Source: Candidatus Chisholmbacteria bacterium RIFCSPHIGHO2_01_FULL_52_32
GTDB taxonomy: Bacteria; Patescibacteriota; Microgenomatia; UBA1400; Chisholmbacteraceae
Assembly: GCA_001816585.1 (NCBI GenBank)
Contig: MHCJ01000003.1
Span: forward strand, 778,681-842,680
Direction of reading: 5' to 3'
Length of the DNA stretch: 64,000 bases
Of the stretch, positions 21,020 to 61,631 are shown piece by piece; positions within the stretch are counted from its first letter, which is position 1; the number at the start of each line of letters is the position of its first letter. A program made the position numbers and the translations under genes. The notes under the pieces are model-generated. The model did no database searches and was not told where the DNA came from. It saw only the letters and a list, made by a program, of their open reading frames with translations.

Positions 21020-21745
21020 CTAGACCTTGATGAGGGCAGCAGTAATCACAGCGCGACGAAGGTATGTTCCTGGCGGCGTACAGGTAATGAGGCGGAGATA
21101 TTCGTTGTCATACGATTGCTCAAGAACCGTGAGGTTATCGGGTTTTACCTCTGTTTTGTCAATTACCCGATAGGTATAGGAAATTCCATCGAATTTTATG
21201 AGCACTTCGTCTCCAATTTCCATCGTTGGGACAAGGGAAAAGATCGCCTTGTAATTCTTCGGATTGAAGAATTGGGGGAGAATTGAATGACCGAAGATAA
21301 TGGTTGCGCCCAGCTCTCCGGGAAGCGCTGAGCCTTTATATTGGACAAGATTTTTAGAAAGGTCTTCTCCGCCAATGGCTACCGTCGCGTCAATGATATT
21401 GAATTTCGGTATCGATAGCGTGTAGTGGGTAATTTTGGATTCCCTTGCCGTGTTCGGTTTCGCATTGGGAAACCAGTCTGTGGGATTCAGCAATTCCTGG
21501 CTCGCTGAGCCAAACTGATCGGGCTCGCTACCCTTTACAGGTATGGGGGTAACAAACTGTTGGGGCTTGAGACTTGGAGCGGTAAATACCTCATATGAAA
21601 CAATTGGCCAAATGACACTTCCTATGATCATCGTCCCGGCAACCATGAGCCCTTTTGCTGCTATCTTGGGTCGACTCTGTCTCCTATCGCTTGATCCTTG
21701 TGCTTCTGGCTCGATCCTTCGTTTGACGTACCGATAGGGTTTCAT
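21020..21745 (-). CDS. Sortase family transpeptidase
   Basis: N-terminal membrane anchor; catalytic His (IIFGHSI), Cys in LRLITCTPPGT (TLXTC) and Arg (YLRRAV). Confidence 0.8.
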   Translation of the reverse strand: MKPYRYVKRRIEPEAQGSSDRRQSRPKIAAKGLMVAGTMIIGSVIWPIVSYEVFTAPSLKPQQFVTPIPVKGSEPDQFGSASQELLNPTDWFPNAKPNTARESKITHYTLSIPKFNIIDATVAIGGEDLSKNLVQYKGSALPGELGATIIFGHSILPQFFNPKNYKAIFSLVPTMEIGDEVLIKFDGISYTYRVIDKTEVKPDNLTVLEQSYDNEYLRLITCTPPGTYLRRAVITAALIKV

Positions 21746-46394: not shown

Positions 46395-48062
46395 TTAGCT
46401 TGTCGATTCTTCAATCCCAGGCGTTTCCAAGACTTCTTCCGATTTTTTCAGAATCTCTTTCCAATTTCCGATTCGACGCCCTAAGGCAATCACCTCCGTC
46501 AATTGCTCTAGATGAAGTACTGCCGAGAGGTTCAAGTACACCAGCACCCCTATCGCTACAACGCTTGTGGTTAAGATGATGAGGTTTATGGTTTTTGTGG
46601 TATCTAAGATGAAGCTATCAATGAGGCGCATTGGAAGCCAAAGGAAAACGCCGGTGACCATGGTTGCTACGATCATTTTTCCCATCGGAAAAAGGAATGA
46701 AGGAGTCATCACTTTCACCTTTCGATTCAGAAGGATCAGCAGAGAAATTGCTTGGAGAAGACTCGCTAGGCTCAGTGCAAGGGCTAAACCGACGACGCCA
46801 AAACCCATGACTCTTGTTAATACAATGCTTAGGATAGCGGTCGTTATGGCGCTTATCGTTCCCGTTGCGAGAGGCGTTTTGGTGTCGTGGGTTGCATAAA
46901 AAGCACGGGTGAGGACACCCACAATACTTTGGGTTGGGATAGAAATAGAAAGCAGTGCCACAGTTTTCCCGGTTAGGAGCGTGGCTTCCCATGGGAAATT
47001 GCGGGCACCAAATGCAATACGTACGACCGGAACTCGAAGGATGAGCAGGATCACTGCGGCAGGGAGCGAGAGGTAAAGCACCTGGAGTAGCGATGATTGA
47101 ACGGTCTTCTGGAACTCCTCTCTCTTCTCGGAAGCAATCTCGGCACTCAAGGTTGGGAACGATGCTTGGCCGATTGCGGTTCCGAATAGGGTGACAGGCA
47201 AAAGGTAGAGCTGCCTGGCAAAATTAAAAATCGTTAAGGATCCCGCATGGAGAGCCGTGGCAATAAAGACGGCGATAAAGCGCTCCGCTTGCCCGATGAC
47301 GAGGGTAAGGGATCTGGGCGGCATGAGTTTTCTGATCTCTTGGACTCCTGGATGACGAAAATCAAGACTGAACCGGTAGCGGAATCCTAATTTTCTTGCT
47401 AGAGGAATCTGGATTACCAAGTGCAAGAATGAGCCAATCACCACTCCGATGGCCGCCCCAAAGATTCCCATTGAAGGCGTTAATACTATAATACCGGTGA
47501 TTATTCCGAAGTTATAGGCGATTGGCGCGAGGGCAGGAATCAAAAATCGTTGATGCGATTGGATGACCGCTGTCAAAAAACCTGAGAGAGTAAAAAAGAT
47601 CTGGGCAATAAGCATTATGCGTAACAGCTGTGAGAGAAGTACGGTTTTATCTGGTTCAAGGGATGGTGCAATGAGAAAAGCGAAGTGTTTACTTGCCAAA
47701 AAAATGATTGTTATGAAGACAAGAAAGGCGATGGTTATGACCGTGATTGCTGCGGAGGCAAGACGAGAGGCTGCTTCCTCCCCCTTCTTCAATTCATGCG
47801 AGAACACTGGAATAAAGGCAGCGGAGAGAGCGCCGATAACCAACAACTGAAATAGCGTATCGGGAATGACAAATGCGGCGAAGTAGACATCCAGTTCTGC
47901 CTCGCGTCCACTAAAGAAGGTGGCTGCTAGCAAGCGGTTGCGCACCAATCCCAGAAGACCAGAAGCGGCATAAGCCACCATAATGACAAATGCGGCTGAA
48001 AGAATATTTGTCTGTCGTCGCAACAACAACAAGCGACCGTTTCTGAAAAAATTCGTTACCAT
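46395..48062 (-). CDS. murJ: Lipid II flippase MurJ/MviN
   Basis: 555 aa, 14-TM MOP-superfamily pattern with conserved MurJ N-terminus. Confidence 0.85.
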   Translation of the reverse strand: MVTNFFRNGRLLLLRRQTNILSAAFVIMVAYAASGLLGLVRNRLLAATFFSGREAELDVYFAAFVIPDTLFQLLVIGALSAAFIPVFSHELKKGEEAASRLASAAITVITIAFLVFITIIFLASKHFAFLIAPSLEPDKTVLLSQLLRIMLIAQIFFTLSGFLTAVIQSHQRFLIPALAPIAYNFGIITGIIVLTPSMGIFGAAIGVVIGSFLHLVIQIPLARKLGFRYRFSLDFRHPGVQEIRKLMPPRSLTLVIGQAERFIAVFIATALHAGSLTIFNFARQLYLLPVTLFGTAIGQASFPTLSAEIASEKREEFQKTVQSSLLQVLYLSLPAAVILLILRVPVVRIAFGARNFPWEATLLTGKTVALLSISIPTQSIVGVLTRAFYATHDTKTPLATGTISAITTAILSIVLTRVMGFGVVGLALALSLASLLQAISLLILLNRKVKVMTPSFLFPMGKMIVATMVTGVFLWLPMRLIDSFILDTTKTINLIILTTSVVAIGVLVYLNLSAVLHLEQLTEVIALGRRIGNWKEILKKSEEVLETPGIEESTS

Positions 48063-48505: not shown

Positions 48506-49102
48506 ATGGCTGCCCGAAAGCCAACCATTGATCTTCTTTCCCGCGAAGATTTATCTCAACGGCCGGTTGGTCGTTTGCTTCTGTGGATTTTAACTGTCGG
48601 GCGTTACATCGTTATTTTCTCAGAACTCGTAGTCATTTCTGGATTTATCATCCGTGTTATTCTTGATCGAAATCTCAATTCCATCAATGAAGATCTCCTT
48701 CGACAAAAAGCCATCCTCGCTTCTTATCTTCCAACCGAGCAACGCGTTCGCCGCGCAGCTCAGCAATTTGCGACCATCTCACGGATTGAACAGGAGCAGC
48801 AAGATCTCGGGAAGCTCCTCGAAAAGATCGGCCAAGTTTCCCCAAAGGATCTCAGGTTCTCCAATCTCTCCCTTGACCCTCGTACCATGGAGATCTCTGC
48901 TGTCGCACTATCTCCTTCGGGGTTTTCGACGTTTTTGGGGAACCTCCAGGCTGACCCAGGTATCGGCGATCTGATTCTTCAATCTGTCGAATCCGGCACA
49001 GCTCAAGATCCCGGTATCCATTTTCGTTTGACCGTTGAATTTGTGGGAGCACCATCATTACTTCAAACCCAACCGCCTCCCACTGAAGAGGAGCAGCTTT
49101 AG
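48506..49102 (+). CDS. pilN: Type IV pilus assembly protein PilN-like (bitopic)
   Basis: N-terminal IDLLS (compare PilN INLLP) cytoplasmic peptide, TM, coiled coil, C-terminal domain resembling PilN; AAGGAA SD. Confidence 0.55.
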   Translation: MAARKPTIDLLSREDLSQRPVGRLLLWILTVGRYIVIFSELVVISGFIIRVILDRNLNSINEDLLRQKAILASYLPTEQRVRRAAQQFATISRIEQEQQDLGKLLEKIGQVSPKDLRFSNLSLDPRTMEISAVALSPSGFSTFLGNLQADPGIGDLILQSVESGTAQDPGIHFRLTVEFVGAPSLLQTQPPPTEEEQL

Positions 49103-49114
49103 CAAAAACCCTTT

Positions 49115-49765
49115 ATGTCTTTTCCGTACGAAGAAAATTTTCGCCGCTATGGTCGCTACTATCGGACCGCACGAAAGTATGCCCAACGCCCAGAAGTTCT
49201 GATTTCCACAAGTTTTATCCTTGCTCTTTTCACCATCTCGTTTTTTGCTATCGTGGCGATCAGACCGACGGCCATTACCATCGCTAAACTCTGGAGAGAG
49301 ATTCAAGAGAAGAAAACCATCCAAGCCACGCTGGCGCAGAAGATCGCGAAACTTGAGGAGGCACAATCCACCTATTCTGCTCTTGAGGAAGACCTGGCGC
49401 TTCTCGATCGTGCACTTCCCGAAACTCCGGAGTTTTCCCGGCTGGTACGGGAAATGGAATATCTGTCTTTGACCCAAGGGCTCCAAATCGATGCAGGCCG
49501 CTATGAAACCCTTGAGCTTTGGGTCAGAGAAGCCAGTGCTTCTACGGAAATTGGAACGCATCCGTTCACGTTAGTCCTCCGCGGAACCTATCCTAAACTT
49601 CGCTCTTTTGTTTCGGATTTGGAACGACTAGACCGGCTGCTTTCTATTGGTATGGTGACAATGCAACCATCCCAAAAGCAAGACCAGCCTGGAATCTACG
49701 ACTTAACGCTGACTGCAAATATTCGTGCTTTTTCATTTCCTAGCGGCCTCGATCTTGAACGCTAA
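49115..49765 (+). CDS. pilO: PilO-like type IV pilus assembly protein
   Basis: Short cytoplasmic N-terminus, TM, coiled coil (..LAQKIAKLEEAQSTYSALEEDLALL..), alpha/beta core; follows the PilN-like gene. Confidence 0.45.
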   Translation: MSFPYEENFRRYGRYYRTARKYAQRPEVLISTSFILALFTISFFAIVAIRPTAITIAKLWREIQEKKTIQATLAQKIAKLEEAQSTYSALEEDLALLDRALPETPEFSRLVREMEYLSLTQGLQIDAGRYETLELWVREASASTEIGTHPFTLVLRGTYPKLRSFVSDLERLDRLLSIGMVTMQPSQKQDQPGIYDLTLTANIRAFSFPSGLDLER

Positions 49766-49770
49766 CGATT

Positions 49771-50091
49771 ATGCCATCATCAGAACGATTGAAACGACAA
49801 CTCCTTGAATTTGGAATCCTGACTTTAATCACGGTCATCGCGTGGATTGGGTATGGCGTGTACTCCGTCCTCACACAACCTGTTCGCACCAATGTGAGTA
49901 ATGAGGAACTTCGTCCGTTGCCTCCACTTCTCACAACGGATCAAGTGGGCATTCTTCGGAACCGACTTAGCGTTGGCGATGATGTTCTTGAACAGTTTTC
50001 CCTTTCCCCTTCGGAAATTCCCAGCCCGGTCACTCTCCCCATTCCTCCCCCAACTTCTGCTTCACCTTCTGGTTTGCCATCGACACCTTAG
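49771..50091 (+). CDS. Small bitopic membrane protein with Pro-rich C-terminus (possible PilP-like pilus accessory protein)
   Basis: TM LEFGILTLITVIAWIGYGVY; Pro-rich tail PIPPPTSASPSGLPSTP; operon position after pilO. Confidence 0.35.
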   Translation: MPSSERLKRQLLEFGILTLITVIAWIGYGVYSVLTQPVRTNVSNEELRPLPPLLTTDQVGILRNRLSVGDDVLEQFSLSPSEIPSPVTLPIPPPTSASPSGLPSTP

Positions 50092-50155: not shown

Positions 50156-51571
50156 ATGCTTAAGAAACGTATTCCTACTATTCTCGGCATCCTCTTATTA
50201 CTGGTCGGGATCACCGCAGGGGTTTATCTGGTTGAACTTGGTCCTCAATCGCTTACGACCCGAGCCGGCCCAGAATATACCCCTTCTCATGTGGCGATTA
50301 CCAATATCACCGATCATTCCTTTACCGTTTCTTGGCTCACGGAAACTCTATCTTTGGGTTTCGTTCGGTATGGGACATCCGGTACTGCCCTAGACCTTTC
50401 GGCGCTTGATGATCGCACCGAGAGCGAGGAGAGCGATCAAACCTTTATAACCCATCATGCCACGGTTGAGAATCTGTCTCCGAACACGACCTACTATTTT
50501 GAAATTATTTCCGGAACAGGAACCACAAGTTTTACCAACAACGGGGAACCTTATACCGCAACCACGGCTTCAACCTTTTCGCCTTCTGTCTCCGCCGACA
50601 CCGCGTACGGCGCTGTTTACTTTCCCGACTTAAGCCCGGCTGAGGGTGCATTGGTTTATGTCACCCTTGAGGGAGGTTCTCCGCTGTCATCGCTTGTCGC
50701 ATCCACCGGAACGTGGGGCGTTCCGTTATCTTCAATGCGAACCGCAGACCTTGCCTCTACTATCCAGTATGATCCTTCCGAGACGACGCTTACGATTCGC
50801 GTTGTTGGGTCTGATGGGACTGAGGTTGCGGTTACGACGACCACCGGAAGTGATACTCCAGTCGATGACATCGTCCTTTCGAAGATGTCCGAGGAGGTAG
50901 CCGAGATCCAGGAGGATGCAACCAGTTCGGCGACGACCAGTCAGTTCTCTCTCACTCCCCTTGCGGATCTTCCAGAGACAGAAGGCAACAGCGTCACGGT
51001 TGTCGATCCTTCTGAGGGAGAGGCGATCAATACCCAACTGCCAGAATTCCACGGGAGCGGCCCTGCAGGCAGTTCGATTACCGTGATTGTGGAATCAGAG
51101 CAGCCTCTCCAGGCAACGGTGCAGGTGGATGCTCTGGGCCAATGGTCATGGTCTCCGTCTGTTCCCCTCGATCCCGGTGAACACCAGCTGACGATCCGTT
51201 GGCTGGATCAGAGTGGTATCGTGCGCTCAATATCCAGGAGTTTCGTCGTCTATGCTCAAGGAGAGAGTTCCCTTCCGGCGTTTGAGTCGACTCCGTCTGC
51301 AACAGCGACACCGACTCCAGTTGAGCTGGCCGCCATTACCCCTACCCCAATTCCGACAGCCAGACCCACAACGTCACCACAACCTACCGTTCCCCCGACG
51401 ATCACTGTCACGCCGACTCCGTCCCCGCGTCCGAGTCCTACTCCTGAAGCAACTACTCCCGCTCTTCCAGTACCAGGATCGGGAGCGTTTTCTGTCATTC
51501 TTATTCTCTCAGGGCTTTCTCTCACGGTTTCTGGAGCGCTCCTTTTGTCACGAAAATCCTTCCTTCTGTAA
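50156..51571 (+). CDS. Secreted cell-surface protein: N-terminal signal/anchor, FN3-like (purple-acid-phosphatase-N-type) domain, beta-sandwich/Ig-like domains, Pro/Thr-rich stalk, C-terminal LPxxG-type sorting signal (LPVPGSG + hydrophobic segment + RKSFLL)
   Basis: HSFTVSWLTE...RYGTS...TTYYFEI FN3 pattern; TPSATATPTPVELAAITPTPIPTARPTTSPQPTVPPTITVTPTPSPRPSPTP linker; tail motif, TM and basic end read directly. Confidence 0.6.
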   Translation: MLKKRIPTILGILLLLVGITAGVYLVELGPQSLTTRAGPEYTPSHVAITNITDHSFTVSWLTETLSLGFVRYGTSGTALDLSALDDRTESEESDQTFITHHATVENLSPNTTYYFEIISGTGTTSFTNNGEPYTATTASTFSPSVSADTAYGAVYFPDLSPAEGALVYVTLEGGSPLSSLVASTGTWGVPLSSMRTADLASTIQYDPSETTLTIRVVGSDGTEVAVTTTTGSDTPVDDIVLSKMSEEVAEIQEDATSSATTSQFSLTPLADLPETEGNSVTVVDPSEGEAINTQLPEFHGSGPAGSSITVIVESEQPLQATVQVDALGQWSWSPSVPLDPGEHQLTIRWLDQSGIVRSISRSFVVYAQGESSLPAFESTPSATATPTPVELAAITPTPIPTARPTTSPQPTVPPTITVTPTPSPRPSPTPEATTPALPVPGSGAFSVILILSGLSLTVSGALLLSRKSFLL

Positions 51572-51742: not shown

Positions 51743-53014
51743 ATGCGCGTTGCGATCGTTGGTGCGGGATTCACGGGATTAACTTCAGCGCTTCGGTTGT
51801 CGCAAGCGGGCGAATCAGTCTCGTTGTTTGAGGCGTCTGATGCTCCCGGCGGGCTTGCTTCCGGATTGAGTCGCCCTGGCTGGGAATGGCCCGTTGAGCG
51901 TTTCTATCATCATATCTTCACCAATGATGCGGCTATCATCCGACTGGCACATGAGGTTTCCTGGCCTCCATTATTTTTCCATCCTGAAACCTCTGTGTAT
52001 TTTGAAGACAGGATATATCCCTTTGATTCTGTGCTTGACCTTCTCCGCTTTCCGCATCTCTCTTTAGCCTCGAAAGTCAGAATGGGCGCCACTCTCGGGT
52101 TCCTGAAAGCCCTTCCTTTCTGGAAGCCTCTGGAACGGTTCACCGCCGATCGCTTCCTGCGTTTCACCATGGGAAGTGCCGGGTATACCACAATTTGGGA
52201 ACCGCTCCTGATCGGGAAATTTGGACCCTTCGCTCCATCTGTCAATGCGGCTTGGTTTTGGGCAAGGGTATTTAAACGGACGGCGAGGCTCGGATATTTT
52301 CGGCGCGGTTTCCAGGGTCTGGCTGATCAAATTGTCGACTCAATCACCAAGCGTGGGGGGCGGGTTTTGACCAACCATCCCGTCGAAAACGTATCTGTCT
52401 CAAAGAAAGGCTTTGTTGTCCGATCTGCTTCTCGGGAGCAGCTGTTTGACCGGGTCCTTTTTACCACCAGCACCTCTTTGTTTCTTCGTCTTTTTCCGGC
52501 GCTTCCGGATCGGTACCGGTCTGGTTTGCAACAGCTTGCCTCTGTCGATGCTTTAGTTTTGCTTTTGGTCCTTCGAAAGCCTTTTATGGAGGGCGTTTAT
52601 TGGCTCAATGTTCTTTCGCGGTCGCTCCCCTTTTTGGTTCTGATTGAGCATACCAATATGATCGATTCAAAGTACTACGGCGGGAACCACCTGCTTTACC
52701 TCGGGACCTATCTTCCGGCAACAGATCCGTTACTTCACCGTTCTCCCTCATTCCTTCGCCATCTGGCAATCCGGCAGCTTCTGGCAATTCGGAATGACTT
52801 TGATCCTTCCAATATCACCTCTTGTTTTGTCTTTCGGGGGCCGCAAGCACAACCGGTCGTTCCGGTTTCTTATTCATCCATTCTGCCTACCATTTCCACT
52901 CCCATTCCGAACCTCTATCTTGGAAATATGAATCTTGTCTATCCATGGGATCGGGGTACGAACTACGCCGTCGAACTCGGAGAAAAACTGGCTCGTGTTA
53001 TCCTTCACCCGTAG
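51743..53014 (+). CDS. FAD/NAD(P)-binding Rossmann oxidoreductase (amine-oxidase / CrtI / UDP-galactopyranose-mutase structural class)
   Basis: N-terminal VAIVGAGFTGL...LFEASDAPGG dinucleotide-binding motif; 423 aa. Confidence 0.7.
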   Translation: MRVAIVGAGFTGLTSALRLSQAGESVSLFEASDAPGGLASGLSRPGWEWPVERFYHHIFTNDAAIIRLAHEVSWPPLFFHPETSVYFEDRIYPFDSVLDLLRFPHLSLASKVRMGATLGFLKALPFWKPLERFTADRFLRFTMGSAGYTTIWEPLLIGKFGPFAPSVNAAWFWARVFKRTARLGYFRRGFQGLADQIVDSITKRGGRVLTNHPVENVSVSKKGFVVRSASREQLFDRVLFTTSTSLFLRLFPALPDRYRSGLQQLASVDALVLLLVLRKPFMEGVYWLNVLSRSLPFLVLIEHTNMIDSKYYGGNHLLYLGTYLPATDPLLHRSPSFLRHLAIRQLLAIRNDFDPSNITSCFVFRGPQAQPVVPVSYSSILPTISTPIPNLYLGNMNLVYPWDRGTNYAVELGEKLARVILHP

Positions 53015-53017
53015 TCC

Positions 53018-54934
53018 ATGAAACTTCAGCCGTCAATCTCTTCCACGAGTTTCGCGTTCAAGAACCTTACCCAACTGTCAGAAGGGGCGCGGAACAGATT
53101 CGTACAGGCTGCTATGGCCAGGCTAAAAGCATGGCGAGACTACCAAAGTGACAAGAAAAATCAAGACAAACCTTCTGCAGCCAAACGAATTTCTGTTATG
53201 CGGCCCGCTCGGGATAAACCGTTTGCGACCAAGAAATTTCCGTTCCGCGGATTCAATAATGACGCGAACGTCGAGTCTTCTTGGAAATTCTGGCTGACAC
53301 TTATCGTTCTGGTTGGCGGTTTTTTCCGTTTCGCAAAGCTCGATTGGGGGGACGGTTATTTCTTTCATCCTGATGAGTATCACATCAGCTCTGCCGTTGA
53401 TAAACTCTCTTTTCCCTTTCAGATGGATCCCCATTTCTATGCGTATGGTTCTTTCCCCATCTATCTTATCTATTTTGCACGGGCAATCATCTTCGCCCTA
53501 TTCCCAGATTATCTCTTTTCTCCCATACTGATAGGGAGATTCTTTTCCGCTTTCTTTTCAACCATTACAATTTTGTTTGTCTTTTTGAGCGCACGGATCA
53601 CGTTTCGAAACCATACAATCGCTCTGCTCCCTGCCCTTCTGGCGGCGTTAACCCCTGGACTTATCCAACAAGCGCATTTTGCCACCCCTGAGTCCAGTCT
53701 GACCTTTTTTATTTTTCTTTGCCTGTGGCTGTGGCTCTCTTATCTTCGCACCACTCGTCCGGTCTTTCTTTATGTTTCCGCCATCTCCCTTGGGTTGGCT
53801 GTAGCTTCGAAAATTTCCGCTGTTTCTCTGCTTCCCGTGTTTGTGTTCCTCCCTTTTTTCAAGCGCGTTTTATCCTCTTTTCGATCTGTTCTCGCGGGCA
53901 TAGCTCGCTTGGGTGTTTGTCTCCTTCTTGTCCTTGTTTCGTTCCTATCCGTCTTCCCCTTTGCTCTTTATTCCTTCAGCGCTTTTTCCTCTTCCCTTTC
54001 TTATGAGATCGGTGTCGGAAGAGGAGAGCCGATCGTCTTTTACACACGGCAGTTTATCGATACCGCTCCGCTCCTGTTTCATACTATGCATATCCTCCCC
54101 TATGCTCTTGGGCCGGCGATGCTTGGATTTGGAGGTGTCGGATTCCTGATTGTGGTTTCTGATATCTCTTTGCTGAGGTTTGGTACAAAGCGAGACAGGG
54201 TCCTCTGGGGTTTGCTTGTTATTGTTTTTCTGGCTTTGTTTCTCCCTCAGATATTCCTGTTTGCAAAATGGACACGGTTCATCGCGCCCTCGTTTGCCTT
54301 TTTTTCTTTGTTTTCGACCTATTTTTTCTATCGGATCAGTCCTTTCCTCAAGTCGCAAGCTTTGGGGGGGGTGATTCAATCGGTTGCCTGTCTCGTTCTC
54401 CTTCTGCCCACCATTTTTTGGGCGCTTGCGGTTTCTTCCGTCTATTTCCGGCGAGATGTCCGCGTCCTTGCGACAGCGTGGGTCGCCCAACAGCTTCCGC
54501 CACGTTCCTTCCTTCTTACCGAATCTGGCAACATCCTTGAAGTCCCTCTCTGGGGTGAGTTTCGCAAAGACGCATTTGACTTTTATGAGCTTGAACACCG
54601 AGCGGATCTTCAAAGACAGCTTCCGACTCTTCTTTCACAAGCGGATTATTTCATCGTCCAGAGCCGGCGCATCTTTTTCAACCATCAGCGGCTTCCCGCA
54701 CAATTTCCTTTTACATCTCGGTTTTATGATCTTCTCTTCTCCGGCTCCTTAGGATTCGAGTCAATGGCTACCTTTTCCTCCTATCCGAGGTTATCCTTCG
54801 GTCGGGCAACCATAGAAATACCTGATGAAGTAGCCGAAGAAACGTGGTCGGTTTTTGACCATCCGGTGGTACGGATTTTTCGGAAGAGCGTTTTATTCAC
54901 TGAGGCAGAATATGAAGAGCTTCTCACTGACTAA
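53018..54934 (+). CDS. Polytopic membrane protein, YYY/DUF2298-like putative GT-C glycosyltransferase (paralog 1) with loop-1 HPDE motif
   Basis: Basic N-terminal region then more than 10 TM helices; WGDGYFFHPDEY...FYAYGSFP motif; C-terminal soluble domain. Confidence 0.6.
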   Translation: MKLQPSISSTSFAFKNLTQLSEGARNRFVQAAMARLKAWRDYQSDKKNQDKPSAAKRISVMRPARDKPFATKKFPFRGFNNDANVESSWKFWLTLIVLVGGFFRFAKLDWGDGYFFHPDEYHISSAVDKLSFPFQMDPHFYAYGSFPIYLIYFARAIIFALFPDYLFSPILIGRFFSAFFSTITILFVFLSARITFRNHTIALLPALLAALTPGLIQQAHFATPESSLTFFIFLCLWLWLSYLRTTRPVFLYVSAISLGLAVASKISAVSLLPVFVFLPFFKRVLSSFRSVLAGIARLGVCLLLVLVSFLSVFPFALYSFSAFSSSLSYEIGVGRGEPIVFYTRQFIDTAPLLFHTMHILPYALGPAMLGFGGVGFLIVVSDISLLRFGTKRDRVLWGLLVIVFLALFLPQIFLFAKWTRFIAPSFAFFSLFSTYFFYRISPFLKSQALGGVIQSVACLVLLLPTIFWALAVSSVYFRRDVRVLATAWVAQQLPPRSFLLTESGNILEVPLWGEFRKDAFDFYELEHRADLQRQLPTLLSQADYFIVQSRRIFFNHQRLPAQFPFTSRFYDLLFSGSLGFESMATFSSYPRLSFGRATIEIPDEVAEETWSVFDHPVVRIFRKSVLFTEAEYEELLTD

Positions 54935-56624
54935 ATCCTTTCAAATCCCAATCATTCTCATTTTTCTCATTTCTATGATCTTCCGGCTCTATGGGCTTAA
55001 TTGGGACGGGGGACATCATCTCCATCCGGATGAACGGTTCTTAACGATGGTTACCCAAGACATTTATTGGCCTCGCTCTGTCTCTTCCTACCTTAACCCC
55101 GCACTATCTCCCTTGAATCCCTACAACGTTGGCTATCCGTTCTTTGTCTATGGCATGTTTCCGCTTATCCTGGTGAAATTCATTTCTGACCTGATCACCC
55201 TCGACCATTTCTCCTACAACAACATTACTTTGGTCGGTCGTGTGCTGGCTGCGACGTTTGATGTCGGAACACTCCTTGTCGTTTATCTCATCGCGCGACG
55301 CACTTTTTCTTCACGCATAGCCCTGTTTTCCGCCCTGTTCTACGGTCTATCTGTTTTGCCTATTCAACTCTCACATTTTTTTACCGTCGATCCGGTCATG
55401 GTCTTTTTCCTTGTTCTTTCCTTTTTTCTGTTGCTGATTTTCCTTGATGGCCGGCGGCAATGTTTTTCAAGTATTGGGCTTGGTATTTCATTCGGGCTTT
55501 CGGTCGCCAGCAAAATCTCCGCGGGTTATTTTCTTGCCATTATTGGACTTGGGTGGCTGGTCGTTTTTTTGAGAACGAGAAAGGTTCTTCCAACAGTTCT
55601 TGGCGCCGTTTTATTCGTCTTTTTTTCTTACAGCACCCTTCGTCTTGCGGATCCACGGATGTTCACCTCCCCCTCGTTTTTTGATCCACGACCTAATCCC
55701 CAATTCCTTGCCAACCTTCGCGAGCTTCAAGCGCTAAACAATCGTTTTGCGTTCTTTCCTCCTTCCATTCAATGGATTCCGACCAACCCTATCTGGTTTC
55801 CTTTTATGAATATTGTGCTTTGGGGATTTGGCCTGCCTTTAGGCATTTTCGTGGTCTTGGGTCTTGTTGCTTCCCTGCGGTTCTTTACTATGACTATCTT
55901 GTTGCCTCGCCGTATTCCCCGCATCCTGAAGCTTTGGCCAGAGCATCTAGGTCATTTGTTTCTGCTTACGTGGGTACTTTTTCTTTTCATTTCTCAAGGT
56001 ATCCAGTTTGTAAAAACTCTGCGGTATTTTTATCCCATTTATCCGTTTTTTGTGATCTTGGCTGCTTGGTTCTTTGACAACACGGTGGTTCGGCGATCTT
56101 CCCACATCGTTGTTATTGGGTTCTGCGTTATCTTTGTGATTTATCCAGTTTCTTTTCTTTCCATTTACTCCCGTCCCCACTCGCGCGTGATGGCTTCCGA
56201 ATGGATCTACGCCAATATTCCCACCGGGTCTGTTCTTTCATGCGAGCATTGGGATGACTGTTTGCCGCTCGGTGCTTCGGGGAGGTCCAATGCGCTTTAT
56301 CAGACTGAAGTGCTGCCCCTTTTTGATCCTGATACCCCCGAAAAGTGGCGGAAGATCAATCGTCAACTTGAGAATGTGGATTATCTGATTCTCTCCTCTA
56401 ATCGTGTCTGGGGTTCCATTCCGAAGGTACCGGAGAAATTCCCTCTTACCAGTCAGTTTTATCAGGATCTGTTTGCCGGGAAGTTATATTTCAAGAAGGT
56501 TTTTGATCTCACGTCTTACCCTACCATTCCCCTTCTCAATATTCCCATTCCCGATGATTCTTCAGAGGAAGCGTTCACCGTCTATGATCATCCCCGGGTG
56601 ATCATCTTTCAAAGAATGCAATAA
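54912..56624 (+). CDS. Polytopic membrane protein, YYY/DUF2298-like putative GT-C glycosyltransferase (paralog 2)
   Basis: WDGGHHLHPDERF...FFVYGMFP motif pair as in paralog 1; ORF-track start 54855 is TTG, ATG at 54912 overlaps the paralog 1 stop by 23 nt. Confidence 0.6.
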   Translation: MKSFSLTKSFQIPIILIFLISMIFRLYGLNWDGGHHLHPDERFLTMVTQDIYWPRSVSSYLNPALSPLNPYNVGYPFFVYGMFPLILVKFISDLITLDHFSYNNITLVGRVLAATFDVGTLLVVYLIARRTFSSRIALFSALFYGLSVLPIQLSHFFTVDPVMVFFLVLSFFLLLIFLDGRRQCFSSIGLGISFGLSVASKISAGYFLAIIGLGWLVVFLRTRKVLPTVLGAVLFVFFSYSTLRLADPRMFTSPSFFDPRPNPQFLANLRELQALNNRFAFFPPSIQWIPTNPIWFPFMNIVLWGFGLPLGIFVVLGLVASLRFFTMTILLPRRIPRILKLWPEHLGHLFLLTWVLFLFISQGIQFVKTLRYFYPIYPFFVILAAWFFDNTVVRRSSHIVVIGFCVIFVIYPVSFLSIYSRPHSRVMASEWIYANIPTGSVLSCEHWDDCLPLGASGRSNALYQTEVLPLFDPDTPEKWRKINRQLENVDYLILSSNRVWGSIPKVPEKFPLTSQFYQDLFAGKLYFKKVFDLTSYPTIPLLNIPIPDDSSEEAFTVYDHPRVIIFQRMQ

Positions 56625-56637
56625 CCTGTTATTCAGA

Positions 56638-57759
56638 TTATGTAGTCTCCATGAGTGATTCTAATGCGTCCATTGTTCGTTGGTAGTCGAACTTCTTTTG
56701 GATCTCTTTTTTTGGCCTGATGAATCTTTTTCTATTGGTGATAACCTCAGCGATGGCTTTTGCCAAGGCTTTGGTGTTTCTCGGTGGAACTAGCTTTCCC
56801 ATTCCCGTGAGAGATATCGGTATCCTCACTCCGGGAAGATCGGTTGCGACCACAGGACATCCGTGCATCATCGCCTCAACTTGGACCATCCCGAATGCCT
56901 CCAGACGTTCGGTAGACGGAAGTACCAGCACATCAATTGTCTTGTAGAAGCTCGCCATTTCCGCTTGGCTGAGCGGGCCAAGGAATGTCAGGTTCTGCTT
57001 CCATTTTTCCAAGTAGCCCCCGAGCAAACTTTTGTAGTCCACGCCGATCACCTCCTTAAACGGCCCCGCGAAAATCAGCTGTACGTCTCTCCCAAGACTT
57101 TTTCTGAGGGAGGGTAGGGTTTGGAGCAAATGATGGAGCCCTTTTTCCCTGGATACTCTTCCGGCAAATCCGATCTTCACCTTTGCATCCTGCCAGTTTC
57201 CGGATAGATTGGCCGGGGTTTCCAGTTTGACAGGGGGGAGAATGTAGACAACCTTCTTTTTGAATAGTGATAGGAATCGCGAATGTCTGCCGTAATCCTC
57301 GGTGTATGAAATGATGGCGTCTGCAAGGGCGCCGGCAATGAATTGAGTAATCCAAGTTGCAATTTCTGAAATATGATTGACAAGACCCGGCCAACCGGAG
57401 AGGTCGCAATGGTAGGTCAGAATCACATTCTTTTTTAAGAGTTTGGCAAGGATTACCGTTATGAACGATTCGAATTGAGGAAGATGGCAGTTTACAATCT
57501 GCGATTTTCTCAGTGCTTTGTAGACTGCGATAGGAAAAGTCGGCATGACGGGCCCTCTTCCAATACAGACGGGAGTCCAGATCCTTGTGATGAGAACTCC
57601 CCGTATGATCTCTCTGGCTGGCAATTTTTTTCTGTACTTTGCAGTCAGGACTTCGACGGAGTGACTGCGATTCACCATCTCCTCGGCGAAGCGTTTGGCA
57701 TAGATTGTCAGGCCACTGATGTTTGGGTGGTAGTAACTGATTCCGATGAGGATCTTCAT
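56638..57759 (-). CDS. Glycosyltransferase family 4 (GT-B fold)
   Basis: MKILIGISYY.. N-terminal GT4 domain; C-terminal ..EAFGMVQVEAMMHGCPVVATD.. (EX7E-like) motif. Confidence 0.8.
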   Translation of the reverse strand: MKILIGISYYHPNISGLTIYAKRFAEEMVNRSHSVEVLTAKYRKKLPAREIIRGVLITRIWTPVCIGRGPVMPTFPIAVYKALRKSQIVNCHLPQFESFITVILAKLLKKNVILTYHCDLSGWPGLVNHISEIATWITQFIAGALADAIISYTEDYGRHSRFLSLFKKKVVYILPPVKLETPANLSGNWQDAKVKIGFAGRVSREKGLHHLLQTLPSLRKSLGRDVQLIFAGPFKEVIGVDYKSLLGGYLEKWKQNLTFLGPLSQAEMASFYKTIDVLVLPSTERLEAFGMVQVEAMMHGCPVVATDLPGVRIPISLTGMGKLVPPRNTKALAKAIAEVITNRKRFIRPKKEIQKKFDYQRTMDALESLMETT

Positions 57760-58307
57760 GGTGCTTGGATCAGCGATCTTACTGAGCGGGTACCGTTCCA
57801 ATGGATGATTCGAAGTTTCGGCAGTCTCGTGCGCAGGTAGTCTATCTGCGCTTCATCGTCATCGATGAACATCTCAAGCTTCAGCTTGCGGATCATGCTC
57901 TCTTTGAATCGATGCGGTTGTCTATTATTCAAATTCACATACACCCCCTGGAAGAGCCCAGCACAGTCATAGGTTTGCAGCCAATCTTTCGTTCTTCCTC
58001 TTAAAAAGCTGTATCTCCCTGAAATCACGTAGAATTCGTATGTTCCGGCGATTGTCCGGATATCCCTCAGATTATTCCAAATCGGCTGGCGGAGCAGTGG
58101 GTGATGGCTCAACCATCGAATGGAGCGCTCAAGAGCAGAGCTCGGATATCGGTAGGCGAGTTCTGTTTTAGTGCGTTCGCGGACCAGCCGGGTCAGCGCC
58201 CAGTTGGGAAGCCCTGGTGGTTTATCGATGATCACGCCGTCGAGATCCAGTCCGATACGGACCGGTCTTCGCTTGGTCGGTCGTTTCGAAAGCTTTTTTC
58301 CTTCCAT
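57756..58307 (-). CDS. HAD-like hydrolase (putative phosphatase/nucleotidase)
   Basis: Motif I IGLDLDGVIID (DxDGV); stop overlaps the GT4 start (ATGA). Confidence 0.4.
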   Translation of the reverse strand: MEGKKLSKRPTKRRPVRIGLDLDGVIIDKPPGLPNWALTRLVRERTKTELAYRYPSSALERSIRWLSHHPLLRQPIWNNLRDIRTIAGTYEFYVISGRYSFLRGRTKDWLQTYDCAGLFQGVYVNLNNRQPHRFKESMIRKLKLEMFIDDDEAQIDYLRTRLPKLRIIHWNGTRSVRSLIQAP

Positions 58308-58464
58308 CGTTCCTGCCTATTATACGAAGAAAGAGTGTTTTTCCCTACTTCCCGGCTGTCTGTTTCTGGTGATTGTCTGAGGTAACTGAGGCGTCCTCTT
58401 GTATTCATCTCTCTTCTTGTCACTCTGTATCTGATAGGATTGATGCGTGTTCGGGAGTATCGCT

Positions 58465-60570
58465 ATGCCTGAATTATTGAGCGTCTTTTTCTGGTGGGGT
58501 TTGATCTCTTTCCTTGGTGCCTTGGCTTTTCCGTTTACTTTTTGGTTGTTCCGTCGCTTTTGGGATGGGGGATGGGCACTGGCAAAGATCCTCGGTTTGG
58601 TCCTTTTAACCTATTGGACGTGGATTGTTGGGAGCTTGCGGATCCTTCCTTTTGGGCCGCTTTCTTTGTGGCTTGGCGTTGGTCTGCTTGGTTGGTTTTC
58701 TTTCCAAGTCTTCATGAGATCGATTGAGCCGATACGGACGTTTGTTCGCGACCATTTGTCCCTGATCTTGTTTGAAGAACTCCTGTTTGGTGTCGGTTTG
58801 CTTGGCTGGGCATGGATTCGGGCACATCAGCCGGATATTGAGGGTCTTGAAAAATTCATGGATTTTGGATTTGTCAACTCGATCCTGCGCTCCCGTTGGT
58901 TTCCCCCCTTGGACATGTGGCTTTCGGGCAATACCATCAACTACTACTACTTCGGCCATTTGGTGACGGCCGTTCTGACGAAGCTTTCCGGCTTTCCCTC
59001 TTTTCGGACCTACAATTTGATGATTGCCGCTCTTTTTTCCTTGACGCTTGTTTCCTCCTTCTCCATCGGAGGAGCACTTACCCGCACGTTTCTTCGCATC
59101 CGCGATGCGAAATCTTCCAGAGTGCTTGTATTTTTAGGAGCCATTATTTCTGCGGTGACCCTGACCTTGGCCGGAAATCTCCATACCATCATCACCGTTG
59201 TCAACAAAGGGGCTTCTTCGTACTGGTACCCTGACGCTACCCGCTATATCCCTTTCACGATCCACGAATTCCCGCTCTACAGTTTTGTTGTAGCTGACCT
59301 GCATGGCCATGTTTCAAATATCCCATTTGTTCTCCTCATGGTAGGGCTCATCTTCAGTTTTGGGATTGAATTGTCTTTGAAACGGTTTTCCCTTCCTTTC
59401 TCCTCTTTCTTGCTCCGCTTACTGGCCATCGGGTTGACGACTGCCGTACTTTTCATGACGAACTCCCTGGATGCGCCGATTTACTTCTTGCTCTTTATTG
59501 TCGCTTTAGTGAGTTCGGGTCCGCGTCTTTCTTTTTTACGACGCTCTGCCTCAATCATCTTCGTTTCGTTTTACGTCGTGCTGATTTCTGCTTTTCTTTT
59601 TTCTCTCCCCTTTTCTCTCCGGTTTCATCCGTTTGCTCAAGGCATTGCGTTGGTGACTACTCGCTCATCTCCCCGTCAGCTTGGCGTCCTTTGGGGGTTT
59701 TTTCTCCTTGTTGCCTTTGTTTTTCTCTCTTCCTTTATCCGTCATCCCAACCGATATTTTCCAGATCGCCCTTCCGGTCCGGCGCGCCGGTTTCTCCTGA
59801 GTCTTCTCGGAGTTTCCTTGATTCTGGTTGTCCTTCCCGAGGTCATCTATATCAAGGATATCTACGTTGCTGAGTACTATCGAGCAAATACCATGTTTAA
59901 ACTGGCGTATCAGGCCTTCATCATGATGGCCCTTGTTACCGGGCCAGTTTTTTCCGGTTTGCTCTGGAATCTTTGGACAGCGAGGGGGCGAGGGCTTCGT
60001 TTCTCCCTGCTTGCGGTCGTTTTCGTGTTTCTCTTTGGCCTCGGCAGTGTCGTCTCCTATCCTTACTTTGCAATACGCTCTTACTACAGTTCCCTCAAGC
60101 ATTTCCGCGGACTTGACGGTCTTGCCTGGCTCTCCGCAAAGTACCCAAATGATGCCCAAGCCATAGACTGGTTACGGGAGAACGTCGAGGGGCAACCCGT
60201 TATTCTCGAAGCTGTGGGAGAAAGTTATACGAACTTCGCCCGGGTTTCGGCGAACACGGGCCTGCCGACAATCCTGGGCTGGCGGGTTCATGAGTGGTTA
60301 TGGCGAGGGAGTTTTGACGAAGCCGGTCTTCGAACAAACGTCGTTTCAACGATGTACACGTCAGTCGATTCGCTTGAAGTTTGTCGACTTATCGATCGCT
60401 ATGACGTGGACTATGTCTTTGTGGGAACCCTGGAAAGGAGTCAGTATCCCACGCTTTCCGAAGCGGTTTTTGAGCGACTTGGTACGTCCGTTTTTACTTC
60501 TGGAGATACCCGAGTATACCGGATCCGCAAGCCGTGTCGATCCCTGTCTTTTCATCTTCATCGGGCCTGA
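58465..60570 (+). CDS. YYY-motif (DUF2298 / chlor_Arch_YYY-type) polytopic membrane protein, putative GT-C glycosyltransferase (paralog 3)
   Basis: Hallmark NYYYFGH motif, about 14 TM helices, C-terminal soluble domain; ORF-track start 58447 is GTG, ATG at 58465 has a GGGAG SD. Confidence 0.65.
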   Translation: MPELLSVFFWWGLISFLGALAFPFTFWLFRRFWDGGWALAKILGLVLLTYWTWIVGSLRILPFGPLSLWLGVGLLGWFSFQVFMRSIEPIRTFVRDHLSLILFEELLFGVGLLGWAWIRAHQPDIEGLEKFMDFGFVNSILRSRWFPPLDMWLSGNTINYYYFGHLVTAVLTKLSGFPSFRTYNLMIAALFSLTLVSSFSIGGALTRTFLRIRDAKSSRVLVFLGAIISAVTLTLAGNLHTIITVVNKGASSYWYPDATRYIPFTIHEFPLYSFVVADLHGHVSNIPFVLLMVGLIFSFGIELSLKRFSLPFSSFLLRLLAIGLTTAVLFMTNSLDAPIYFLLFIVALVSSGPRLSFLRRSASIIFVSFYVVLISAFLFSLPFSLRFHPFAQGIALVTTRSSPRQLGVLWGFFLLVAFVFLSSFIRHPNRYFPDRPSGPARRFLLSLLGVSLILVVLPEVIYIKDIYVAEYYRANTMFKLAYQAFIMMALVTGPVFSGLLWNLWTARGRGLRFSLLAVVFVFLFGLGSVVSYPYFAIRSYYSSLKHFRGLDGLAWLSAKYPNDAQAIDWLRENVEGQPVILEAVGESYTNFARVSANTGLPTILGWRVHEWLWRGSFDEAGLRTNVVSTMYTSVDSLEVCRLIDRYDVDYVFVGTLERSQYPTLSEAVFERLGTSVFTSGDTRVYRIRKPCRSLSFHLHRA

Positions 60571-61631
60571 TAGAAGAACCTCTCAATATAGGTGTGTATC
60601 TCCTCCCAACCATTGCGGCCGATGAGCACCCATTGTCCATTGTAGTTTGCCAGTGGCGGATGAATGAGAAGTCCCGGCTTTCCCGCTTCTTTATCTTCTT
60701 CTTCGATTACCCCATGACGGATATGTTCAGCCTGTGTTTTGAGGGCGAGTTTGGCCAGACTGACGTATTCCGTTTCCGAAAGATCGGTCTTTACTGTCCC
60801 TGAGAATGTCTGCATGAGCTGCCTGACCTTCGTTGGAGAAAGGAGTGTATCCAGAGACAATATCTTGTTTTTAAAGGCAATGAGTACCTCTCGCTGGCGG
60901 CGGGAGCGGGCAAAATCCGTGCCTTCTTCTCCTTCGGCATTGCGCGACCTGACATATTTTAAGGCTCTCTCCCCGCTCAATTCTTGGAGTCCTTTGTCGA
61001 AGTGAAGGTGTTCGTAGCGTAAATCCTCTGGCTCAGCCTCCTCCATTCCGGGAATGGGATATTTGTAGTCGTCAAAGCTCCGGGGAACATCAATCTCAAT
61101 TCCCCCCACCAAATCGATCGCGGTTTTGAACCCGTCAAAGTCGATTGCCACCGCGTAATGAATGGGTTCTCCTATCACTTCCTCGGCAGCTGATTTTGCT
61201 AAGATGAGTCCACCTCCCTGCCTCTTTTGCTCTCCGAAGAAATAGGTGGCGTTGATCTTTGTTTTGAGTGAGTCGATCCAAATGTCTCTGGGGATCGAGA
61301 GCAAGGCGGTGTCAGCTGATTTGAGATCAATGGATAACACGATGATCGAGTCCGTTAACTCCGGTCCTTCGTGATTTGCCCCACCCATCCCGAGAAGTAA
61401 GATGTTGGTCCTGCCTTTGGTTGTTTGCAACACCGCTTGCGGGTCCCTGACGAGTGAGAAGGCTGCTTGGGGTCCTCGGAGAAGACTTCTTGCTACGGTA
61501 AGCAGGGGCCGTACTGCTTGGACGATTGAAATCACCGCGATCGCTCCGATTGTTACCAGCAGGACAGCTCGTACGACACTGCGATGTTTCGTTAAGCGAC
61601 GTTTGATTTTTGCGAGGAAGTGGTAATCCAT
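60558..61631 (-). CDS. LytR-CpsA-Psr (LCP) family cell-envelope glycopolymer ligase
   Basis: N-terminal TM, ..NILLLGMGG...SIIVLSID...LLSIPRD.. LCP core motifs. Confidence 0.8.
   Translation of the reverse strand: MDYHFLAKIKRRLTKHRSVVRAVLLVTIGAIAVISIVQAVRPLLTVARSLLRGPQAAFSLVRDPQAVLQTTKGRTNILLLGMGGANHEGPELTDSIIVLSIDLKSADTALLSIPRDIWIDSLKTKINATYFFGEQKRQGGGLILAKSAAEEVIGEPIHYAVAIDFDGFKTAIDLVGGIEIDVPRSFDDYKYPIPGMEEAEPEDLRYEHLHFDKGLQELSGERALKYVRSRNAEGEEGTDFARSRRQREVLIAFKNKILSLDTLLSPTKVRQLMQTFSGTVKTDLSETEYVSLAKLALKTQAEHIRHGVIEEEDKEAGKPGLLIHPPLANYNGQWVLIGRNGWEEIHTYIERFFYQAR

Follow-up and report, generated by a model that had tools for sequence, protein, structure and literature searches.

The closest described parallels to the protein considered here are found among sortase-anchored surface proteins and among the envelope components of pilus and secretion machines. 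In Actinomyces oris the surface protein GspA is glycosylated by LcpA and anchored by sortase (PMC6381275), and surface proteins with LPXAG and LPXSG signals occur in staphylococci (PMC7137321). Bacteria of the Candidate Phyla Radiation (CPR) lack PilQ, and sortase has been called 'near ubiquitous in Microgenomates' (Méheust et al., PMC6744442). For the Pam pilus of CPR bacteria, PamR has been proposed as the tether from filament to cell, and Pam homologues are reported in Microgenomatia (bioRxiv 10.64898/2026.03.03.709456). In one complete Microgenomates genome a single locus encodes PilA, B, C, D, M and T, and its description leaves PilN/PilO unmentioned (PMC7143001). Here we analysed a 64,000-nt stretch (the window) of contig MHCJ01000003.1 from Candidatus Chisholmbacteria bacterium RIFCSPHIGHO2_01_FULL_52_32, and within it an open reading frame (ORF) on the plus strand (50156..51571). 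To judge from the ORF, an exact-sequence look-up and 188 homologues of like architecture, its product is a 471-aa conserved Microgenomates envelope protein. With a probability of about 0.5, we read it as an envelope protein that partners the PilN/PilO platform, carries glycans and is anchored by sortase; the architecture of the protein and the organization of its operon are close to certain.

The ORF starts with ATG, 12 nt downstream of an AGGA, and the public entry of identical sequence (OGY18886.1 / UniRef A0A1G1VU05, Candidatus Chisholmbacteria) is annotated merely as a hypothetical or FN3-domain protein. An AlphaFold2 model built with 103 homologues (mean predicted local distance difference test score (pLDDT) 82.8) contains helices at residues 6-27 and 443-470, both of high confidence, beta-sandwiches at 44-136, 149-229 and 281-365, and disorder at 245-275 and 382-423. 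The protein displays three beta-sandwich domains on a disordered Pro/Thr stalk, and is exported or inserted via its N-terminal hydrophobic helix. A sequence-only reading had proposed FN3/Ig domains, a Pro/Thr-rich linker and a tripartite C-terminus with LPVPG, and all of these, together with the ORF itself, were confirmed by sequence, Pfam and AlphaFold2.

The C-terminus reads ...EATTPA-LPVPG-SG-AFSVILILSGLSLTVSGALLLS-RKSFLL. LPVPG (residues 437-441; 51464..51478, +) represents, in a variant specific to this clade, the family motif [LIV]Px[TSAP]G, with G441 invariant and P438 at least 90% conserved. Next come a hydrophobic helix spanning residues 444-465 and RKSFLL, the basic tail (466-471; helix and tail together 51485..51568, +), as seen in the sequence and in the modelled helix 443-470. 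The hydrophobic segment had been given as 23 aa; it is real, but counts 22. When 28 residues around the helix start were shuffled 1000 times with their composition preserved, [LIVM]Px[TSAP]G within 16 residues at the helix start appeared in a mean of 3.2 sequences (maximum 10), compared with 120 of the 167 members observed. G441 is one of only eight invariant columns in a 103-sequence alignment, and it lies within an otherwise variable low-complexity region. At the level of sequence comparison, the tripartite tail noted earlier is real and under selection rather than a product of chance.

Among 176 unique tails, 140 carry xPx[TSAP]G directly before the helix. Among these 140, Ser is the commonest residue at position 4 of the motif (51), ahead of Thr (35), Ala (33) and Pro (21), and position 1 is most often V (70), then I (23) and L (22). 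The C-terminal helix contains a conserved Gly, G453, and is absent from five of the 176 tails, namely fragments, one longer protein and one tail of low hydrophobicity. Lys or Arg occurs among the last 10 residues of 146 of 170 family tails. Canonical LPVTG and LPQTG are present in other family members; the window tail departs from canonical LPXTG, reading LPVPG or, in an overlapping register, VPGSG. Its clade has a fixed [LMV]PxPG followed by [TS]G. Three close relatives depart from the more canonical-looking VPG[TS]G (P0009, VPGGE; P0065, VPGIG; P0069, VPGMG), while [LMV]PxPG holds throughout, and VPG[TS]G was therefore rejected as the conserved register. VPGSG is a possible second usable site in the window tail. 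The window motif fits the family consensus in either register, and Pro at position 4 is a peculiarity of the clade.

Model scans pointed to sortase-type signals. Two homologues, P0057 (19.4 bits) and P0112 (15.9), reached the 15.9-bit cut-off of the LPXTG_anchor model TIGR01167. In 100 family tails the recurrent models were all of sortase type, with LPXTG_anchor matching 22 (counted at E≤0.1), EF0750_LPXTG 10, LPxTATN 5 and LAVTG 3. Ten tails from other protein families gave seven sub-threshold matches to TIGR01167, and one further tail reached its cut-off. In related Microgenomates loci, an ending of LPx[AST]G, about five residues often finishing in PT, and a helix recurs on unrelated proteins. 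These include DUF11 proteins (L019:5919-6836 and L023:12486-13463), a PKD+cohesin protein (L045:1139-2302) and further carriers of LPEAG, LPDAG, LPETG or LPRTG with no Pfam domain above threshold. The expectation that other proteins would share the motif was borne out for the lineage (DUF11, PKD+cohesin and domainless proteins) but not within the 64-kb window, where no second ORF has such a tripartite tail. Because unrelated families in related loci carry the signal, it is not private to this protein at the level of the lineage. In many Microgenomates, small surface proteins (150-390 aa; DUF11, PKD+cohesin or domainless) lie 1-4 kb downstream of the FN3 gene, further examples being L009:12431-12919 and L016:12942-13499. 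They combine a conserved N-terminal anchor (…VILAGVAIFTA.RLYQLRQ…) with the LPx[AST]G signal.

The candidate processing enzyme is a membrane-anchored housekeeping sortase on the minus strand (21020..21745), recognized by Pfam Sortase (1.2e-19), an invariant triad and fixed synteny. The sequence-only reading had named it as the sole sortase of the window; the gene is real, and of the roughly 40 main window ORFs scanned no other carries a sortase annotation. It scored under every class-specific (A-F) NCBIfam cut-off. Its 1353 homologues include a best-scoring 120 that share 46-70% identity with it, and H153, C222 and R231 are invariant in 120/120. The gene order around it is RNase J, FtsK, RodZ-like, YtxH, AlaS, a 750-770-aa protein, sortase, RuvX, YceG and rpoB. 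The 29 kb separating sortase and FN3 gene had been stated correctly but is uninformative, because this housekeeping context is fixed in all relatives examined. In a second genome the sortase and a family member (P0132, P0013) lie on one 772,908-bp contig. On these data, sortase processing of the tail is slightly favoured as an interpretation of the sequence.

The second line of evidence is the operon. The FN3 gene occupies the fourth place of a cassette of four co-directional, tightly spaced genes, found in the same order and on the same strand in the window and in five contigs reached via homologues; order and strand are likewise constant in all loci without truncation. Cassette gene 1 encodes a PilN-like bitopic membrane protein (48506..49102, +; Pfam PilN 6.2e-9, above cut-off) and was present in 65 of the 68 loci compared. 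Gene 2 encodes a PilO-like protein (49115..49765, +; Pfam PilO 1.3e-13; 66/68 loci), and the FN3 gene itself was detected in 65/68, with misses of all three mostly at truncated contig ends. Gene 3 (49771..50091, +) specifies a small bitopic membrane protein of 106 aa with a ...PL(N/D)PxLD... motif and a Pro-rich tail, for which no Pfam or NCBIfam match was found. In each of the 61 loci listed, the gap from pilO to the FN3 gene holds a small ORF of this kind, with N-terminal helix and conserved ...PL(N/D)PxLD... motif. Gene order is kept at 30-50% identity, and in loci L005 and L006 the cassette is intact though the flanks differ. Cassette genes sometimes overlap, for example in locus L002 (9673-10008 and 10001-11356); this tight spacing and overlap suggest co-translation as one operon. 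The lipid II flippase gene murJ (46395..48062, −; TIGR01695 4.9e-86) is a conserved neighbour, adjoining the cassette in 61/68 loci in either orientation. Comparative sequence evidence makes a functional link of the protein to PilN/PilO fairly probable.

PilN orthologues mostly start with INLLP, which in characterised PilM-PilN complexes is the PilM-binding peptide. The window PilN has diverged to ...KPTIDLLS (48506-48550). The N-terminus of the FN3 protein, KRIPTILG, vaguely resembles this PilN motif, which may be coincidence. The separate PilA/B/C/D/M/T locus reported for a complete Microgenomates genome is compatible with a PilN/PilO pair that is encoded apart, as here.

The remaining features of the protein are as follows. 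The N-terminal hydrophobic helix (residues 6-27, IPTILGILLLLVGITAGVYLVE; 50171..50236, +), identified from the AlphaFold2 model and the conservation ranking, comprises 21 apolar residues after a KKR n-region and has G18xxxG22 inside. In the family alignments I6, P7, T8, G11 and G22 are invariant or near-invariant and G18 is also kept. Conservation across the family peaks in RIPTILG, which lies where this helix meets the cytoplasm and not in any ectodomain. The helix is probably an uncleaved signal anchor rather than a cleavable signal peptide; a TAG|V site is conceivable.

The first beta-sandwich (residues 44-136; 50285..50563, +) is an FN3-type domain of the purple-acid-phosphatase N-domain kind, on the evidence of Pfam, PDB profile matches and modelled strands. 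Pur_ac_phosph_N (PF16656) matched residues 45-125 with E=1.4e-12 and 48.5 bits against a cut-off of 30, bearing out the likeness proposed from sequence. In the PDB profile search, purple acid phosphatase N-domains were matched at about 3e-5 over query residues 42-123 only, and the fn3 Pfam match was sub-threshold. The second beta-sandwich (149-229; 50600..50842, +) was taken from the AlphaFold2 model and carries a CarboxypepD_reg-like (PF13620) label in many homologues in precomputed Pfam annotation. The third (281-365; 50996..51250, +) is a Big_13 bacterial Ig-like domain (PF19077, residues 290-360, E=1.2e-8), with a SiiE Ig-domain match at 2.6e-9. Neither Pfam, PDB profiles nor the model revealed a metallophosphatase catalytic domain after the FN3-like N-domain, the remainder consisting of two beta-sandwiches and a linker. 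The suggestion of a hydrolase-presenting protein was rejected because there is no catalytic domain. Foldseek matches of the model were generic FN3/Ig tandems only, headed by SiiE, an ice-binding adhesin, Bap, SlaB (8qox_B) and SbsB at E-values of 1e-7 to 1e-9, with TM-scores of 0.12-0.18 over the query and a root mean square deviation above 15 Å in all rows shown.

The disordered Pro/Thr-rich stalk (residues 378-436; 51287..51463, +) was delimited by composition and by pLDDT <50 over 382-423, and is a putative O-glycosylation region. Pro and Thr make up 59% of residues 378-436 and 62% of residues 385-436. The stalk starts with a conserved PAFxxTPSAT motif in which P374, T379, P380 and S381 are near-invariant. 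Downstream of the gene lies a set of envelope-glycan genes. A FAD-dependent amine-oxidase-family oxidoreductase of PRK07233 type (51743..53014, +; NF005560 6.2e-115, 384 bits), found downstream in 10 loci, is followed by two overlapping genes for GT-C / PMT_2 membrane glycosyltransferases (53018-54934 and 54855-56624, +; Pfam PMT_2/PMT). The island continues with a GT4 gene (56638-57801), a DUF2298 protein gene (58447-60570) and a LytR-CpsA-Psr (LCP) phosphotransferase gene on the opposite strand (60558..61631, −; Pfam 1.7e-30). The GT-C enzymes had been described as adjacent to the FN3 gene; they exist as GT-C/PMT_2 genes, but the oxidoreductase gene intervenes. GT-C/PMT-like ORFs were found downstream in 37/68 loci, and of the 50 loci where downstream sequence sufficed, 22 had an LCP enzyme no more than 10 kb away. 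By analogy, it is plausible that the neighbouring GT-C enzymes O-glycosylate the stalk. The LCP enzyme is possibly the glycan-to-protein or glycan-to-wall transferase of the same island. The island as a whole (51743-61631) recurs partly in related loci, and L002 and L004 have FemAB genes in their flanking regions.

The homologues define a coherent family. All 188 found in the protein search belong to Patescibacteria of the Microgenomates type, and nearly all of them share one pair of Pfam domains and a length of 430-490 aa. Searching species-representative genomes with a 25-sequence alignment yielded 62 loci. Those with informative titles come from Chisholm-, Woese-, Collier-, Shapiro-, Pace-, Davies- and Blackburnbacteria, the others being titled generically as Patescibacteria or 'bacterium'. 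A profile search of 1.84 billion representatives recovered many full-length members of 435-500 aa, in results dominated by giant Big_13-repeat proteins. These features are best explained by a lineage-specific structural envelope protein of uniform size in the Microgenomates (CPR). The same CPR cassette was also seen under the titles Gammaproteobacteria and Pseudomonadales ('uncultured'; many public MAG records, L008, L009, L020, L021, L024 and others) and candidate division TM6 (L067, CP011212.1, a complete genome). Because they carry this cassette, these records look mislabelled, and the titles are probably taxonomic errors. In a longer, divergent subfamily (530-660 aa; L032, L034, L041, L042, L044, L052, L054, L059 and L067), murJ is co-directional with the cassette and [QT]Y[NSK][AS]G replaces xPxxG ahead of the C-terminal helix.

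The sortase has a coupled neighbour. The gene of a 760-aa CPR-specific membrane protein (21742-24024, −) overlaps the sortase start codon and immediately precedes the sortase in all contexts seen. In the AlphaFold2 model of this protein (pLDDT 86.6), an actin-like (ASKHA) domain on the cytoplasmic side is followed by a disordered acidic linker and a transmembrane helix (371-397), and the ectodomain has baseplate-J / GlxA-barrel-like parts. In Foldseek, Pseudomonas aeruginosa PilM was among the best matches with TM-scores of 0.40-0.48 on the target, PPX/GppA, YeaZ and EutJ being similar. No Pfam family scored above threshold for this protein, and sequence searches for a relation to PilM were empty. 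Its likeness to PilM is only a lead, drawn from the predicted model. If it held, it would provide a physical connection of the sortase with the PilN/PilO cassette.

The window as a whole has a strong strand asymmetry, with an AT skew mostly between -0.15 and -0.39. It approaches zero at 46-50 kb, the region in which genes change from minus to plus orientation. An unusual strand composition disparity has been reported for Microgenomates (PMC7143001).

The composite reading can be set out as a sequence of conditional steps. The lineage's one housekeeping sortase, inherited vertically, would recognise the tail, cut before the invariant Gly (LPVP|G) and hand the protein to lipid II and hence onto peptidoglycan, while the neighbouring GT-C/LCP enzymes would O-glycosylate the Pro/Thr stalk. 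The protein would act with the PilN/PilO platform of a type IV pilus machine, occupying the operon slot that PilP/PilQ hold in diderms. It might tie or guide this membrane platform through the wall of an organism without an outer-membrane secretin. If the N-terminal helix stays uncleaved, the mature protein would bridge membrane and wall as a strut. A bolder form of the proposal, which we regard as doubtful, holds that one Microgenomates sortase of relaxed specificity ([LIV]Px[S/T/A/P]G, cleaving after Pro too) covalently staples the type IV pilus machine to peptidoglycan through a glycosylated three-domain strut that is a dedicated fourth subunit of the PilN/PilO platform. More speculatively, and extrapolating from a predicted model, the sortase might be recruited to this platform by the actin-like domain of its 760-aa neighbour, binding the INLLP-type N-terminus of PilN.

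Several observations weigh against a sortase-anchored partner of the pilus platform. The window tail matched no NCBIfam sorting-signal model even at E≤10, and 30 of the 176 tails (17%) keep [TSA]G without Pro at position 2 (QYNSG, LLDAG, ILDSG, EIVSG), which is looser than classical sortase signals. To our knowledge there is no sortase precedent for Pro at the P1 position, that of the scissile Thr, or for LPXPG. The sortase gene, fixed in its context, never adjoins the FN3 gene in the relatives examined. Most small carriers finish at the helix end ('…LLAL') without a basic tail, and anchoring in Staphylococcus aureus requires such a tail. On the pilus side, neither Pfam and NCBIfam matches nor structural resemblance in Foldseek indicated homology to PilP or PilQ. 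Neither the window nor the fetched loci with listed gene families contained pilM, pilB, pilC or a pilin gene; the connection with type IV pili is therefore made by the PilN/PilO homology alone. Finally, the anchor-like N-terminus and its conserved Gly spacing are atypical of sortase substrates and suit a two-helix hairpin. Such a protein would be processed at neither end, both helices would stay in the membrane, where they may pack on each other or on PilN, PilO or the small protein, and the motif would be a juxtamembrane hinge or contact site. We consider this unlikely, though it is the strongest of the competing readings. It would account for an N-terminal helix, with G18xxxG22, that is the most conserved stretch of the family, for the conserved G453 in the C-terminal helix, for the high confidence with which both helices are modelled, for a motif invariant at Gly only and missing its Pro in 17% of members, and for a window tail that matches no sorting-signal model. 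A family-specific hinge, however, leaves unexplained why the same LPx[AST]G-xxxPT-helix ending occurs on DUF11, PKD/cohesin and other proteins, and why the recurrent hidden Markov model (HMM) matches are sortase signals; nor does it sit well with canonical LPVTG and LPQTG in family members.

The protein might instead be a free-standing surface glycoprotein of the adhesin or S-layer/stalk type, anchored at its C-terminus, its adjacency to pilN/pilO reflecting gene order in a compact genome. Its nearest structural matches are adhesin/Ig-FN3 tandems and S-layer components, the Pro/Thr stalk and glycosyltransferase/LCP island resemble surface-glycoprotein loci, and other signal-bearing surface proteins cluster just downstream in many loci. 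Chance adjacency is hard to square with a four-gene order kept at 30-50% identity despite changing flanks, and with genes so tightly spaced or overlapping that one operon is suggested. Adhesins usually vary in length and domain number, whereas this family is uniform at 430-490 aa, and its N-terminal helix is conserved above the ectodomains. We hold this reading to be improbable; the earlier suggestion of an adhesin disregards the strongest contextual fact, the fourth place in an invariant cassette of pilN, pilO and small ORF. Far less probable still is C-terminal sorting by something other than a sortase, whether an exosortase or archaeosortase (PEP-, PGF- or VPDSG-CTERM) or a rhombosortase (GlyGly-CTERM), with the enzyme encoded elsewhere in the genome. 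Some members do read VPDSG or IPDSG, VPDSG being the name of an exosortase-type signal, and a Thr/Pro-rich linker ahead of the signal is typical for PGF-CTERM proteins. PEP-CTERM, PGF-CTERM, VPDSG-CTERM and GlyGly-CTERM models, however, found no match among 20 tails scanned at E≤10, and exosortase/archaeosortase-type models (PEP-CTERM-like, Loki-CTERM and similar) matched at most one of 100 family tails each. No exosortase or archaeosortase gene is present in the 64-kb window, whereas a sortase is present and near-universal in the lineage (PMC6744442). Exosortase, archaeosortase and rhombosortase signals were rejected on the model scans.

Much of bacterial diversity belongs to the CPR/Patescibacteria, whose envelopes are almost unknown experimentally. 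In the literature searched we found no description of this cassette or of any CPR sortase motif; coverage was incomplete and absence is unproven. The new elements, as we infer their roles, are a relaxed LPXTG-type signal and an accessory component of the PilN/PilO operon; the protein family and its operon are unannotated. Were the sortase-anchored, PilN/PilO-linked reading true, the motif recognised by sortase would be known for an entire CPR class, and it would be looser than LPXTG and tolerate Pro at the scissile position. Surface proteomes could then be predicted from genomes, and a sortase of orthogonal specificity for protein ligation might be at hand. PilN/PilO would have two unannotated, universally co-encoded partners, bearing on how type IV pili cross the wall without a secretin. 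One conserved locus would unite anchoring by sortase with protein glycosylation of PMT/LCP type and the flipping of lipid II (murJ). The gene thereby offers a putative hint at how uncultured ultra-small bacteria fasten envelope machinery onto the cell wall. Even if the sortase and pilus reading is wrong, the family is well defined, widespread and uncharacterised, with a clear operon context in the CPR.

Compared with Gram-positive LPXTG signals (TIGR01167, PF00746), the tail shares a pentapeptide whose second residue is Pro and whose fifth is Gly, a hydrophobic helix with a mid-helix Gly and a short basic tail. As in LPXTG substrates, a Pro/Thr-rich wall-spanning segment precedes the signal, and the genome has a membrane-anchored His-Cys-Arg sortase. 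Where position 4 is T, A or S, family members correspond to known natural motifs, including staphylococcal LPXAG/LPXSG (PMC7137321). Unlike these substrates, the window protein has Pro at position 4, and the family has V as the commonest residue at position 1 and 17% of tails without Pro. In contrast to the Gram-positive systems, the tail also falls under the HMM cut-off, the N-terminus is anchor-like, the sortase lies under the class A-F cut-offs and the host is a CPR bacterium rather than a Firmicute or Actinobacterium.

The GspA-LcpA-SrtA system of A. oris (PMC6381275) likewise places a protein with a sortase-type signal in an envelope-glycan neighbourhood with an LCP enzyme, with the housekeeping sortase encoded elsewhere and a glycosylated stalk, predicted in our case. 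The two proteins have no sequence relationship, and the nearest transferases here are of GT-C/PMT type, glycosylation is a prediction and the gene, unlike that of GspA, lies in a pilN/pilO operon. PamR resembles the protein in being CPR-specific, with tandem FN3-type domains and a C-terminal transmembrane helix (bioRxiv 10.64898/2026.03.03.709456). The Pam operon, compared by description only, comprises the pilins PamA/B/E/T and chaperones PamC/D in an ATP-synthase neighbourhood and differs from the pilN/pilO/murJ context found here. The archaeal SlaB stalk and the adhesins SiiE, Bap and the ice-binding adhesin likewise hold a string of beta-sandwiches off the membrane by a C-terminal anchor. 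This family has a fixed three-domain size in place of variable repeats, and the matches are generic. Set against PilP, PilQ and GspC, the protein has no detectable sequence or fold-specific similarity, and its gene has no adjoining pilM and no secretin. It nevertheless parallels PilMNOPQ of type IVa pili and GspC of type II secretion in the arrangement of its operon, where pilN and pilO are followed by a small membrane-anchored protein and then by a larger envelope-spanning one. Like PilP and GspC, that larger protein consists of an N-terminal membrane anchor followed by beta-sandwich domains.

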